Source of the DNA: Escherichia phage ManiMatter_Bas94
DNA: 64,000 bases
Reading direction: 5' to 3' (one strand)
Sequence record: PQ850617.1
The stretch's first letter is position 1, and each line of letters opens with the position of its first letter. The notes below the pieces were generated by a model. It ran no database searches. It was not told the DNA's origin and saw nothing but the letters and a program-made list of their open reading frames with translations. The translations under genes and the position numbers were made by a program. This document shows positions 34,046-45,258 of this stretch, piece by piece.

Positions 34046-34540
34046 TTAGTGTGTATGCATCCAGTTTAACCCAATCTGACAATCAGAAGCCAGAGGACAC
34101 TCCATGTTCAAGTACTCACCAGCCTTCTTAACACAAAGCTCGGTGTACTCTTTGAGTTTCTGTACATCATTACGGTTCACTGAGAACTGGCCCTCATCGT
34201 GCATATCAATTACCTTAGCACAACGAACTCCATCTTTCTCAATCCACTTGTTAAGGAACATCATAGCATATTTCATAACAACAGCACCAGCACATTGCAG
34301 GAGTGTGTTAAGGGCTTTATGAACCATAACCTTACCAGTGGCATCCCGTCTCATTGTAATCTTACGACCATCAACGCCAATCAAATACCCTTGAGCAGCT
34401 TTCTCTGTCATACGATCAATGAGGATTGCAATACATGGGTTCTCTGCCAAGAAGCGTGCTCGCATCACTGAACCTTCGTCAGCTCCACCACCTACGATTG
34501 AACCAAGCTTAGCATCACCAGCACCATAGTTAAACGCATC
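34046..34540 (-). CDS. DNA polymerase (family A, T7 gp5-like), C-terminal exon
   Basis: Frame open from 34540: ...FNYGAGDAKLGSIVGG...VDGRKITMRR...ALNTLLQCAGA...IDMHDEGQF... (motif B remainder and motif C HDE); close to T7 gp5 C-terminus. Confidence 0.75.
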   Translation of the reverse strand, partial: DAFNYGAGDAKLGSIVGGGADEGSVMRARFLAENPCIAILIDRMTEKAAQGYLIGVDGRKITMRRDATGKVMVHKALNTLLQCAGAVVMKYAMMFLNKWIEKDGVRCAKVIDMHDEGQFSVNRNDVQKLKEYTELCVKKAGEYLNMECPLASDCQIGLNWMHTH

Positions 34541-35243
34541 TCATATATTCGACAAGAGCCGCAACACTCTCGCCCGTTCTCTTATGAACTGCTACATGTC
34601 GCCATGTAGGATAGACTATATCATCACCCTCTGTCGAGGGGTTGGGCGCTTCCACCGGCATTAGCTTCCGGTGTACTCCTTTCGGATAGTCGTTGCACCT
34701 TCAAGTATTCTATAGCTGTTTCTAATCGGCTAACATCATCTTTCAATAGCCCTAAAGCTCTGTTGCAGTTGTGACACAACAGACCGCGTATTACTCCGGA
34801 TTCATGGCAATGATCAACCACAAGTTTAATTCTGTGATGTGTTGCCATTGCAAACCCTTCGCCCTTACAGATAGCACACTTCCCATCCTGATCAGCGTAC
34901 ATCTTTTCGTAATCGCTGGCTGTGATTCCATAAATTCGTTTGAAGTAGGAATTTCTCCAGCCCCTATCTTTGCATTCATCAGAGCAATAATGTTCAGATG
35001 GTGCATTTGGTTGAAAATCTTTTGAGCAATTACGACAAGGTTTTGGATTGAACCGACCTTGAGGGTATTTACTTGCCTCAGCAGTCTGTTCTTCTTTAGT
35101 TTTAGTTACAGTTGTATATTCCATAAGCACCTCCATGTTGAGTTGCTATAGAATACTTGCTTGGCTCAGGATTGTCTACTAGAGAGTTTCCCTGAGTTCA
35201 CCCAATTTAATCGACGAGATTACTCTCGAAGTATCCATTTACG
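34541..35243 (-). mobile_element. Intervening sequence in polymerase gene (probable group I intron carrying an HNH homing endonuclease)
   Basis: About 700 nt between polymerase motif B halves (exon 1 ends ...PTRDNAKTFI-stop); contains free-standing HNH ORF with own start; exon 2 has no in-frame AUG before conserved residues. Confidence 0.55.
34624..35136 (-). CDS. HNH homing endonuclease (intron-encoded, putative)
   Basis: 170 aa; DHCHESGVIRGLLCHNCNRALG HNH motif plus Cys-rich zinc-binding segments. Confidence 0.75.
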   Translation of the reverse strand: MEVLMEYTTVTKTKEEQTAEASKYPQGRFNPKPCRNCSKDFQPNAPSEHYCSDECKDRGWRNSYFKRIYGITASDYEKMYADQDGKCAICKGEGFAMATHHRIKLVVDHCHESGVIRGLLCHNCNRALGLLKDDVSRLETAIEYLKVQRLSERSTPEANAGGSAQPLDRG

Positions 35244-36596
35244 TCAGATAAACGTTTTAGCGTTGTCACGAGTAGGAAGACCAGCAAGTTTCTGGTTGTG
35301 GGAGTGGATATCACCTTCAAGAAGGATATCACGATACATAATAGCAGAAGCTAAACCACGTTCTGCCAGAGCTTTCTTAGCTGGATTATTCTCTTCGATT
35401 GCTTCAGCAAGCATATCCCTACATTCTTTAATGAGGTAGTGAGCGAGCATACGAAGTTCAAGTCCAGAACCATCATACCCTAAGAATACTTCTTTACCAG
35501 CGGGTATGTAATATTTGTAAGCACCTACAGGCTTATCTTTCTTCCCCGGCTTACCTTTCTCGTAAATTACGTTAGTACCTTTTCGTATATAACAACCATC
35601 AGGAACAACGTTAGTAATAACGAAAGGACGAGAGTGATCACTGTCTGAATTATAGTCAGACTCAAACAAACTGCGACACTCATGACCAAACAAACCACGG
35701 GAGGGAATATTAACCACGATACGATGTTTGAATCGAAAAGTTGGCGTAGCGCAGCTGTTAGCTTCTGCCGAAAGTTTACCATCTTCGCGTTCCTTTGCTA
35801 TGAGTCCACTGATAAGACCTAGCCTGTGAGCCGCTACAACGCGCCTCTTAAGCAAACTTCCAACACTCCCTAGCTCGCCCCCTAACCCTTCTTCAAGAGT
35901 CTCCTCGAGGTTTGTAGGAGCTGTAGGCCACTTGTTTGAGGTAGCTAGTGCTATCTTAATCTCATCAAACGTGATAGGTCTACGTCGGTTAGGGTTTAAA
36001 CCTAAACCAAACACATAAGCCTTCATATAGTTCTTAGTCTTAAACCTAAAATGCTTCTCTAAGAACCTCCTAATATCTGCGTCAACCATCTCGGCTGTCT
36101 GCTTCTGTTTAGCATTACCTCGAATCCAAGCTGAATACCACGCTTGGTATGTTCCATACTTTCGTATATCTTTCTTGATTTCAAAAGTATTCCAAGGTTT
36201 CTTTGATACGTTAAACTCTGGAGGAAGAAAACCCTCATCCATAAGGGCTTCTTTAACTCGTGCATCTTTCGATGGGTCAAAGTCCACGTATTCAACACAG
36301 GTGAATGCTCCACCAATGTCTTCTCTCTTAAGGCCAACTCTATCACAATAGGCTTGAGGCCACTTCTGTAAAGCTCCAGACTTCTTAAATGGCTTCATAT
36401 AAGTAGAGCCATCTAATCTCATCTTAGGTAAGAGAGGGATCAGTTCTTTGTCGATATTAACAATAATCTCTTTAAGGAGGTGAACATACCACCGAGCATT
36501 TCTTCGGTTGAAACTCACTCCGTGCTTCGCTTGCTTAGAGATTATATCAGCGACAGTCATCTCTGTCAAAAATGGGAGAGCGTCCGGGTTGCTCAC
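35244..36596 (-). CDS. DNA polymerase (family A, T7 gp5-like), exon 1 (polymerase domain, N-terminal part)
   Basis: 450 aa; motif A GYDGSGLELRMLAHY; ends in motif B ...GDIHSHNQKLAGLPTRDNAKTFI, nearly identical to T7 ...GDIHTKNQIAAELPTRDNAKTFI. Confidence 0.8.
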   Translation of the reverse strand: MSNPDALPFLTEMTVADIISKQAKHGVSFNRRNARWYVHLLKEIIVNIDKELIPLLPKMRLDGSTYMKPFKKSGALQKWPQAYCDRVGLKREDIGGAFTCVEYVDFDPSKDARVKEALMDEGFLPPEFNVSKKPWNTFEIKKDIRKYGTYQAWYSAWIRGNAKQKQTAEMVDADIRRFLEKHFRFKTKNYMKAYVFGLGLNPNRRRPITFDEIKIALATSNKWPTAPTNLEETLEEGLGGELGSVGSLLKRRVVAAHRLGLISGLIAKEREDGKLSAEANSCATPTFRFKHRIVVNIPSRGLFGHECRSLFESDYNSDSDHSRPFVITNVVPDGCYIRKGTNVIYEKGKPGKKDKPVGAYKYYIPAGKEVFLGYDGSGLELRMLAHYLIKECRDMLAEAIEENNPAKKALAERGLASAIMYRDILLEGDIHSHNQKLAGLPTRDNAKTFI

Positions 36597-44702: not shown

Positions 44703-44703
44703 T

Positions 44704-45258
44704 TTACATTTTCCAATATAATGAAGGTGGGTCATAAGGATCAAATCCTGTGTGTTCACACAAGTATTTATAAACCTTAACAGTTAAGTTAACGTCCTGT
44801 TCACAGTAAGTAAACATATCTTCAGTGAAAGCATCCCATGCTTCCTCCTGCTCACCGTAATCTCCTTTAAGTTCCCCTAAGAACTCACCCCATTGCTTCA
44901 AACCGTGACCTCTTGGGCCATGTCTAGGGTCGCCTTTCGGATACTCAGGACTGTCACCAATACGGTCAGGTTTAAGATATCGACTAAGACACAGAGTGTC
45001 GAAGACGTTAAAACGATATTTAATCAGATTGGGATATATTTTCTTCAGAGCACAAAGGTCGAAGTCAATAATGTTATGGCCCACGAGCACATCAGCTTCT
45101 GTAAGTTTACGAATCCCATCTTCAATTTGGTGAGGCCGGTAGCCCCACCTTTCACCAGTTTCAACATCGAAAATGTAAATACACCATACTTTAGTTATAT
45201 CATCGTACAGTGCGTTACTTTCGATATCAAATGCAAACACTTTCTTTTTCTTTACCAC
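44704..45258 (-). CDS. DNA polymerase 3'-5' exonuclease domain (T7 gp5 N-terminal domain-like) as separate gene
   Basis: 184 aa; FDIESNAL (Exo I), [10 protein letters not shown] (Exo II), [17 protein letters not shown] and [11 protein letters not shown] align with T7 gp5 residues 1-190. Confidence 0.8.

Follow-up and report, generated by a model that had tools for sequence, protein, structure and literature searches.

Group I introns are known from the family A DNA polymerase genes of phages, where, in the numbering of E. coli Pol I, they occupy site 674 (SPO1, SP82, Bastille and Pf-WMP3), site 676 (phiL7) and, in motif C, site 881 (PhiI and W31) (PMC3428280). The HNH nicking endonucleases of SPO1, SP82, Bastille and Pf-WMP3 cut a few nucleotides from the insertion site, introns of the PhiI/W31 type in motif C have been reported to self-splice, and in the polymerase introns of PhiI, W31 and Pf-WMP3 the endonuclease open reading frame (ORF) is placed in P6a, overlapping the 3' part of the core (PMC3428280). 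Competition mediated by the intron endonuclease of a jumbo phage has also been reported (PMC11620839). Here an intron of this kind is described in a 64,000-nucleotide (nt) stretch of Escherichia phage ManiMatter_Bas94 (PQ850617.1), referred to below as the window. Its polymerase gene is, with high confidence, interrupted by a mobile IA2 group I intron that would be spliced out to restore motif B; the locus is a well-supported case of a known type, in which a T7-type polymerase gene harbours a mobile, HNH-encoding IA2 intron.

The interrupted polymerase gene

The window is closely related to Escherichia phage AidaStucki_Bas93 (PQ850593.1), which is part of the BASEL collection and belongs, as a phiEco32-like podovirus, to the Gordonclarkvirinae. 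Between positions 34000 and 37000 the two share 99.6% identity, and across 50 kb they form a mosaic of 95-99% identity with several insertions and deletions. The paper on the BASEL collection does not use the word "intron", and a supplementary figure legend in it cites "homing endonuclease insertions" in the replication locus. No description of the window intron, or of motif B as an insertion hot-spot, was found in the literature, which is weak evidence as subscription journals were mostly uncovered. The genes treated here (polymerase, exonuclease, primase-helicase, thioredoxin and intron HNH) all lie on the minus strand.

The first part of the polymerase gene, exon 1 (35246..36596), starts with GTG, as does the coding sequence (CDS) in the GenBank record of Bas93, and comprises 450 codons plus the first base of a Tyr codon; it encodes the thumb and motif A (YDGSGLELR) and breaks off after the first half of motif B (RDNAKTFI). 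As the initial annotation of this DNA had stated, the corresponding ORF (36596..35244) stops inside motif B, at ...PTRDNAKTFI-TGA; this UGA (35246-35244) straddles the 5' splice site. Exon 2 (34046..34539) provides the last two bases of the Tyr codon, followed by AFNYGAGDAKLG and motif C (HDE), ends in ...NWMHTH-TAA, and matches Pfam DNA_pol_A (1.6e-16). Its reading frame, ..AFNYGAGDAKLG...HDE, has an in-frame TGA two codons ahead of the Phe, and no usable start lies upstream of the conserved exon 2 residues, the first in-frame one being a GTG at 34468, 24 codons into the exon. The earlier claim that the polymerase resumes without an in-frame AUG therefore stands, and only its starting position of 34540 needed correction, to 34539.

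The boundaries of the insertion can be placed exactly by comparison with intron-less alleles. The polymerase gene of phage Bas92 reads ...AAA ACG TTT ATC TAC GCG TTT AAC TAT GGT... (KTFIYAFNYG), and the window reads ...ACG TTT ATC T/GACGTAAATGG......ATATGAG/AT GCG TTT AAC... at the insertion (slashes mark boundaries here and below). In Bas92 and in the kuravirus pEC-N1203-2Af.1 the site is uninterrupted, ...ATCTACGCGTTT..., against ...ATCT/GACG...GAG/ATGCGTTT... in the window; as written on the Bas92 allele, the insertion point is ACGTTTATCT/ACGCG. The insertion is absent from the closest relatives, Bas92 and LAMP (query coverage 77% and 76%). The intron-bearing polymerase CDS exceeds that of Bas92 by exactly 706 nt, and this difference from intron-less alleles places the intron at 35245..34540, with exon 1 ending at U35246 and exon 2 starting at A34539. 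Removal of the intron in silico regains the reading frame, motif B then reading ...KTFIYAFNYGAG, and gives a product of 614 amino acids (aa) that is collinear with the Bas92 orthologue. Exons 1 and 2 are 99.2% and 99.8% identical to the 5' and 3' parts of the uninterrupted Bas92 gene; the 12 differences are scattered, with no clustering around the intron of the kind a co-conversion tract would leave relative to Bas92. The break lies inside the codon of the first conserved aromatic residue of motif B, which aligns with Tyr526 of T7 gp5. In the GenBank record of Bas93 the polymerase CDS is a join of two pieces, inside which an "endonuclease VII" is annotated.

Structure and class of the intron

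That the gap holds a group I intron with an HNH homing endonuclease, as the initial annotation had expected, is borne out by the Rfam model, the fold of the core, covariation, the exact 706-nt indel with the frame regained, the splice-site nucleotides and the joined CDS of Bas93. The match to the Rfam model Intron_gpI (RF00028) runs from 35260 to 34592 over the full model (1-253) and scores 43.3 bits, with an E-value of 5.5e-9 when the region is searched and of 1e-7 when the whole window is. In the alignment P6 contains an insertion of 434 nt, and additional helices lie between P7 and P3'. No other intron was found in the Rfam scan of the whole 64 kb, whose sole other match, at E-values up to 0.01, was a tRNA at 59422-59500 (minus strand; RF00005, 33.4 bits).

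For folding, the ORF-bearing loop was deleted, leaving a core of 282 nt, and its minimum-energy fold contains P2, P3, P4, P5, P6a, P7.1, P7.2, P8, P9, P9.1 and P9.2, with z = -5.5 against shuffles. In P1, the exon sequence UAUCU pairs with the intron sequence GGAUA at 35236-35232 (intron positions 10-14), which sets the pair U35246.G35236 at the splice site; at the other end the intron closes with a terminal G at 34540. P3 is formed by 35205-35199 with 34648-34642 and P7 by 34691-34687 with 34618-34614, so that the core helices, the absence of which had been named as fatal to an intron, are present, including the P3/P7 pseudoknot. P6a is a perfect 15-bp stem that encloses the endonuclease ORF, its 5' arm (CAAGUAUUCUAUAGC, 35145..35159) pairing with its 3' arm (GCUAUAGAAUACUUG, 34702..34716), and the latter doubles as the AIEYL codons of the endonuclease. 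The presence of both P7.1 (UCC-GAAA-GGA) and P7.2 (CACCGG-(9 nt)-CCGGUG) assigns the intron to subgroup IA2 by the criterion of PMC3428280.

Covariation was assessed, with the P3/P7 pseudoknot included, in an alignment of the window core with the introns of Salmonella phage Vi06, Yersinia phage Berlin and the Klebsiella phages RCIP0053 and IME184 and with intron 1 of Aeromonas phage vB_AsaP_MQM1. In this six-intron alignment 92% of cells are in standard pairs, compared with ~40% when the partners are slid, and 39 of the 76 pairs show changes on both sides; none of 500 shuffles matched any of the measures. Compensatory changes affect 9 of 11 pairs in P6a and occur in both P7.1 and P7.2, and P7 is invariant (GACUA/UAGUC). 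Going by sequence and RNA structure, the intron is probably spliced in vivo.

The intron-encoded endonuclease and the proposed mechanism

The gap also carries, as had been noticed at the outset, an HNH ORF with a start of its own (34624..35124, 166 aa). It begins at ATG 35124, with GGAGG (35134-35130) 5 nt ahead, and ends at the TGA at 34626-34624; were translation to begin at the upstream ATG at 35136 instead, the product would have 170 aa. The extent of the ORF is identical to that of the "endonuclease VII" CDS of Bas93 in GenBank, and the protein matches Pfam Endonuclease_7 (PF02945) with 83.2 bits (cut-off 23.6; E 1.2e-23). The ORF lies in the P6a loop, starting 21 nt beyond the 5' arm, and its last ~90 nt overlap P6a', P7, P7.1, P7.2, P3' and P8, the stop codon falling in the junction J8/7. 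The motifs CAIC...VVDHCH...LCHNCN (CxxC...DH...CxxCN) are present by inspection of the translation; their catalytic and zinc-binding roles are presumed here from T4 endonuclease VII. The protein is 57-60% identical in amino acid sequence to the ORFs of the polymerase introns of Berlin, Yepe2, Yep-phi, Jarilo, IME184 and RCIP0053, and its nearest relatives in the phage collection besides Bas93, as far as examined, are all ORFs of motif B introns in Autographiviridae polymerase genes.

From these features the following mechanism may be proposed. One pre-mRNA would be transcribed across the polymerase gene, and ribosomes on exon 1 would halt at the UGA that straddles the 5' splice site. Once the intron RNA has folded, an exogenous guanosine would attack after U35246, held in P1 by the U.G pair with the guide GGAUA, and the released exon 1 would then attack after the terminal G34540. 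The predicted junction of the ligated RNA is UUUAUCU/AUGCGUUU, and the resulting mRNA, ...AAA ACG TTT ATC TAT GCG TTT AAC TAT GGT..., would encode the 614-aa exonuclease-less polymerase, with proofreading presumably supplied by a separate 184-aa exonuclease encoded next to the primase-helicase; this exonuclease may associate physically with the polymerase. In a mixed infection, the HNH product would be predicted to introduce a nick or cut close to motif B in polymerase alleles that lack the intron, and repair off the intron-bearing genome would copy the intron in (homing). Both the activity of the endonuclease and its target are predicted from the features given above.

Mobility, selection and alternative explanations

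The intron is rare, with one carrier among 111 related phage records. A search with the spliced polymerase returned many proteins of ~440-460 aa that end inside motif B, and, judged from where they end, these correspond to exon 1 of further interrupted alleles. One of them comes from a metagenomic contig of 86.5 kb (L009), in which a 706-nt intron occupies the identical site and is 94.5% identical to that of the window, against 72-79% for the polymerase exons, which indicates horizontal mobility; the intron appears to have moved between polymerase genes that are ~25% diverged. The endonucleases of the two share 156 of 166 residues, and the codon differences between them comprise 19 synonymous and 10 non-synonymous ones. 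Over the intron as a whole there are 39 differences, of which the ribozyme core (278 nt) has 8 and the rest of the intron (428 nt) has 31; the five that fall at paired positions all keep the pairing, one being a double change from A-U to G-C. The intron of Bas93 differs from that of the window at three positions (99.6% identity), and the substitutions among the window, Bas93 and L009 preserve pairing in every case. Taken together, the rarity among relatives, the excess of intron over exon identity, the pair-keeping changes and the synonymous excess argue for a mobile element in which ribozyme and endonuclease would both be functional and which would have moved between diverged phages.

Some observations weigh against this interpretation. 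The Rfam score lies under the RF00028 gathering score of 50, so that the model check proposed in the initial annotation gave a full-length match of sub-threshold score; the 434-nt P6 insertion and the extra IA2 helices may be the reason. P1 has just 5 base pairs and P5 just 3. Covariation was counted in six sequences on a structure that came from one of the six, so that the paired-cell measure is biased towards this structure; the compensatory counts are the stronger evidence of the two. Near-identical copies aside, the relatives of the HNH protein are at most 60% identical, and its cleavage target is only predicted.

The low score and the short P1 and P5 would suit a decayed intron, in which the ribozyme, the endonuclease or both are dead and the polymerase is a pseudogene or is inefficiently spliced. 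We regard this as very improbable: Bas93, which forms plaques, has the same intron and no second polymerase gene annotated, pairing has been kept among the three copies compared, and the HNH ORF is intact, with synonymous changes in excess and the residues of the endonuclease VII fold in place.

Slightly less credible again is a gene in pieces, in which an endonuclease cassette has split the polymerase and the two polypeptides reassemble non-covalently without any splicing. The insertion of mobE that splits nrdA in Aeromonas phage Aeh1 is a precedent for such an arrangement, and the stop codon at the end of exon 1, the endonuclease gene in the gap, the reporting of both halves as separate proteins by many gene callers, and the non-covalent exonuclease/polymerase arrangement that this lineage already tolerates would all accord with it. 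It would, however, leave exon 2 without a start codon or ribosome-binding site ahead of the conserved YGAG and would put the break inside a codon of the motif B helix, and the gap holds a complete, covariation-backed group I core with canonical splice-site nucleotides. The better conservation of the ribozyme core than of the part that is ORF only would be unexpected if the endonuclease alone mattered.

An intein, or some other insert that is excised from the protein, can practically be dismissed: the insertion does interrupt a catalytic motif of high conservation, a location typical of inteins, but the in-frame stops at the 5' junction and just ahead of exon 2 and a length of 706 nt, which is not divisible by three, led to its rejection, and the insert has no intein motifs and an endonuclease with its own ribosome-binding site.

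Insertion sites in and around motif B

The group I intron of the window belongs to a series of introns in the motif B region. With the position of the window intron taken as site 0 (ATCT/ATGC; window, Bas93, L009, L016 and MQM1 intron 1), others are found at site -5 (ACGTT/TATCTA; Berlin, Vi06, RCIP0053 and L014), site +6 (TATGCGT/TT; IME184), site +10 (TTCCT/ATATGG; L015) and site +12 (TTTAACT/ATGG; L011, which is ORF-less and scores 102 Rfam bits). In each intron checked for P1 the internal guide fits its own site; for L015 and L011 it is the splice junction that fits. At least five staggered sites lie within 17 nt, and the ribozyme halves are mosaic; among the annotated polymerase introns of this region, the 5' halves are of two types by sequence, and these do not track the insertion site. 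The endonuclease gene, where an intron of the set has one, is of the endonuclease VII type or of the HNH_3 type. It is conceivable, though we put it forward tentatively and think it rather unlikely, that motif B of phage family A polymerases is a hot-spot of repeated re-targeting of IA2 introns. If this were true, and if the related endonucleases shared one conserved target, these introns would form a natural series for how group I introns gain new sites.

Exon 2 position +2 (window 34538), directly beside the insertion site, carries a synonymous change from TAC to TAT relative to the intron-less alleles, and TAT is common to all carriers at site 0 (window, Bas93, L009, MQM1 and L016). None of the other exon differences from Bas92 borders the intron. 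As a suggestion only, the change would make a possible P10 (UGCGUU with GACGUA) one pair longer; alternatively, it could reflect minimal co-conversion or protection from the endonuclease.

A second intron, at the PhiI/W31 position between the His and Asp codons of HDE, is present in pEC-N1203-2Af.1 (L003, 3096-3703), in L009 (~5395-5993) and in MQM1 as intron 2 (L006, ~2622-3250); the window polymerase has no insertion in motif C. An HNH_3-type ORF was called in the motif C intron of L009 and an HNHc-type ORF is annotated in that of MQM1, and in pEC-N1203-2Af.1 the two polymerase pieces around the intron are annotated as separate genes. In L014, a Logan contig (SRR22103693), a gap of ~1.5 kb at the Berlin-type site ACGTT/T (3875-5380) contains ORFs of 160 and 174 aa and two Rfam group I matches, and may represent two adjacent introns or a nested arrangement.

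The separate exonuclease and the polymerase fold

A stand-alone 3'-5' proofreading exonuclease of 184 aa, recognised as T7-like in the initial annotation, is encoded at 44704..45258, directly after the primase-helicase gene (45252..47042; Pfam DnaB_C and Toprim_2, and GenBank annotation), which is the first gene of a conserved replication block. The ORF starts with GTG and overlaps the end of the primase-helicase ORF. Its product matches Pfam DNA_pol_A_exo1 (3.8e-9, 37 bits, cut-off 23.6), has T7 gp5 residues 3-185 as best match among solved structures (E 1.7e-11), and keeps the motifs Exo I (FDIESN), Exo II (HNIIDFD) and Exo III (YCEQDV) intact; it is 37% identical to the N-terminal exonuclease domain of the fused MQM1 polymerase. 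The block of primase-helicase, exonuclease, nucleotidyltransferase and dCTP deaminase is 85-96% identical in 98 related records, and the exonuclease is annotated throughout Kuravirus, often as "DNA polymerase exonuclease subunit".

The polymerase itself has no Pfam match to an exonuclease domain, and in T7 gp5 the alignment to the profile of its family begins only at about residue 206, which shows a polymerase devoid of this domain. For an orthologue whose gene is uninterrupted and whose protein shares 99% identity with the spliced product, the AlphaFold model has a predicted local distance difference test (pLDDT) score of 91 and T7 gp5 as best fold match (E 1e-25). With "DNA polymerase part II" of LUZ24-like Pseudomonas phages the polymerase shares 39% identity, and in phages of the LUZ24/PaP3 type the primase-helicase gene is followed by "part I", which encodes an exonuclease of 171 aa, then by small ORFs and lastly by "part II" (PMC3890496). 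As the layout is common to Gordonclarkvirinae and LUZ24-like phages, and the domains are fused in MQM1, the split is a trait of the lineage; on this comparison of genomes the separate exonuclease is to be seen as the ancestral layout of the two groups, unrelated to the intron. The description of a polymerase "split three ways" is thus correct in that a separate exonuclease and an interrupted polymerase gene are both present, but the arrangement is not special to this genome.

The nucleotidyltransferase ORF (44759..43404, minus strand) ends in RFADEAGRGFSFDIETNN (C-terminus, window 43404-43460), which resembles the Exo I motif of the exonuclease encoded directly upstream. An origin of this tail as a remnant of a duplicated exonuclease was rejected, the DNA not being similar and the tail being kept in orthologues: RFADEAGRG[FI]SFD[IM]ETNN is retained in Kuravirus despite a variable preceding region. 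It may be a conserved acidic interaction tail.

Thioredoxin and neighbouring cassettes

The thioredoxin gene noted earlier (40275..40550, 91 aa) is confirmed by a match to Pfam Thioredoxin (3.5e-13) and a CAPC active site. Such a gene is said to be conserved in all phages of this (C3) morphotype, and it has been hypothesised in print (PMC7881722) that the thioredoxin serves the polymerase in the way known from T7. The thioredoxin-binding loop of T7, inserted in the thumb between helices H and H1, spans ~83 residues, and in the same place the polymerase family of the window has ~60 profile positions; no similarity to the T7 loop is detectable in the profile alignment, and the AlphaFold model is confident in that region. 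By analogy with T7, the phage thioredoxin may be hypothesised to act as processivity factor. The annotation of the first 50 kb of Bas93 lists no ribonucleotide reductase.

Beside the thioredoxin gene lies a ferritin-like (Dps-type) ORF of 187 aa (40797-41360, minus strand; Pfam 2.8e-7), the Bas93 counterpart of which is called "DNA binding protein". A free-standing HNH_3 endonuclease gene (41353-41847, minus strand; 164 aa, Pfam 7e-9) lies within a segment of ~550 nt (41361-41910) that is absent from Bas93 (PQ850593.1), as is a second segment of 412 nt (42453-42865). The window in turn is without the HNH gene Bas93_0028 and ~650 nt (Bas93 30669-31317). By sequence comparison the window is best described as a distinct mosaic relative of Bas93, the differences being mostly cassettes the size of endonuclease genes.

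Implications for annotation and further study

For annotation, the two polymerase ORFs and the HNH ORF are best read as a single spliced gene in which a homing-endonuclease gene is nested. Truncated "exon 1" polymerases still appear in many database records of relatives and in many gene calls from metagenomes. The known range of introns in T7-type polymerase genes is extended to phiEco32-like Gordonclarkvirinae, and the understanding of how such elements work is unchanged by these results. The intron-less Bas92 and the intron-bearing Bas93 come from the same river, are ~99.5% identical in polymerase exon DNA, and differ here essentially by the intron. Both are culturable phages of E. coli K-12 held in a public collection, and would offer a simple system for studying homing or competition mediated by an intron endonuclease.

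Comparison with known systems

Among polymerases, that of the window is closest to T7 gp5 in both sequence and fold. T7 gp5 works with E. coli thioredoxin, and this phage encodes a thioredoxin. The exonuclease is fused in T7 and not in the window polymerase, the insertion at the loop position is ~20 residues shorter in the latter, and the thioredoxin is encoded by the phage and has CAPC instead of CGPC. With the LUZ24/PaP3 layout the window shares an exonuclease gene of ~171-184 aa followed by an exonuclease-less polymerase of ~546-614 aa; the two are separated by ~8 kb of nucleotide-metabolism genes in the window and by ~2 kb of small ORFs in LUZ24-like phages.

As regards the intron, intron 1 of MQM1 lies at the identical site (ATCT/ATGCG), with an identical P1 and a core of ~80% identity, and scores 75 Rfam bits, above the gathering score; it differs in being ORF-less, at 289 nt, and in residing in a polymerase with a fused exonuclease domain. 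The annotated polymerase introns of the Yersinia phages Berlin, Yepe2 and Yep-phi, of Salmonella phage Vi06 and of the Klebsiella phages RCIP0053 and IME184 share the motif B region and a homologous 3' ribozyme half, and these Yersinia and Klebsiella introns carry the homologous endonuclease-VII-type HNH described above (not shown for Vi06). They differ in their insertion 5 nt upstream (Berlin, Vi06 and RCIP0053) or 6 nt downstream (IME184), with guides that differ to match. The polymerase introns of PhiI and W31 are also of the IA2 type, with an HNH ORF in P6a and a host gene for a T7-type family A polymerase of an enterobacterial podovirus, but they interrupt motif C (Pol I 881), whereas the window intron interrupts motif B at its first conserved Tyr/Phe codon. 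SPO1, SP82 and Bastille (I-HmuI, I-HmuII and I-BasI) and the cyanophage Pf-WMP3 (I-PfoP3I) likewise have IA2 introns in phage family A polymerase genes, at site 674 and with endonucleases of another HNH subfamily; by analogy, these nicking endonucleases are the likely working model for the HNH protein of the window.

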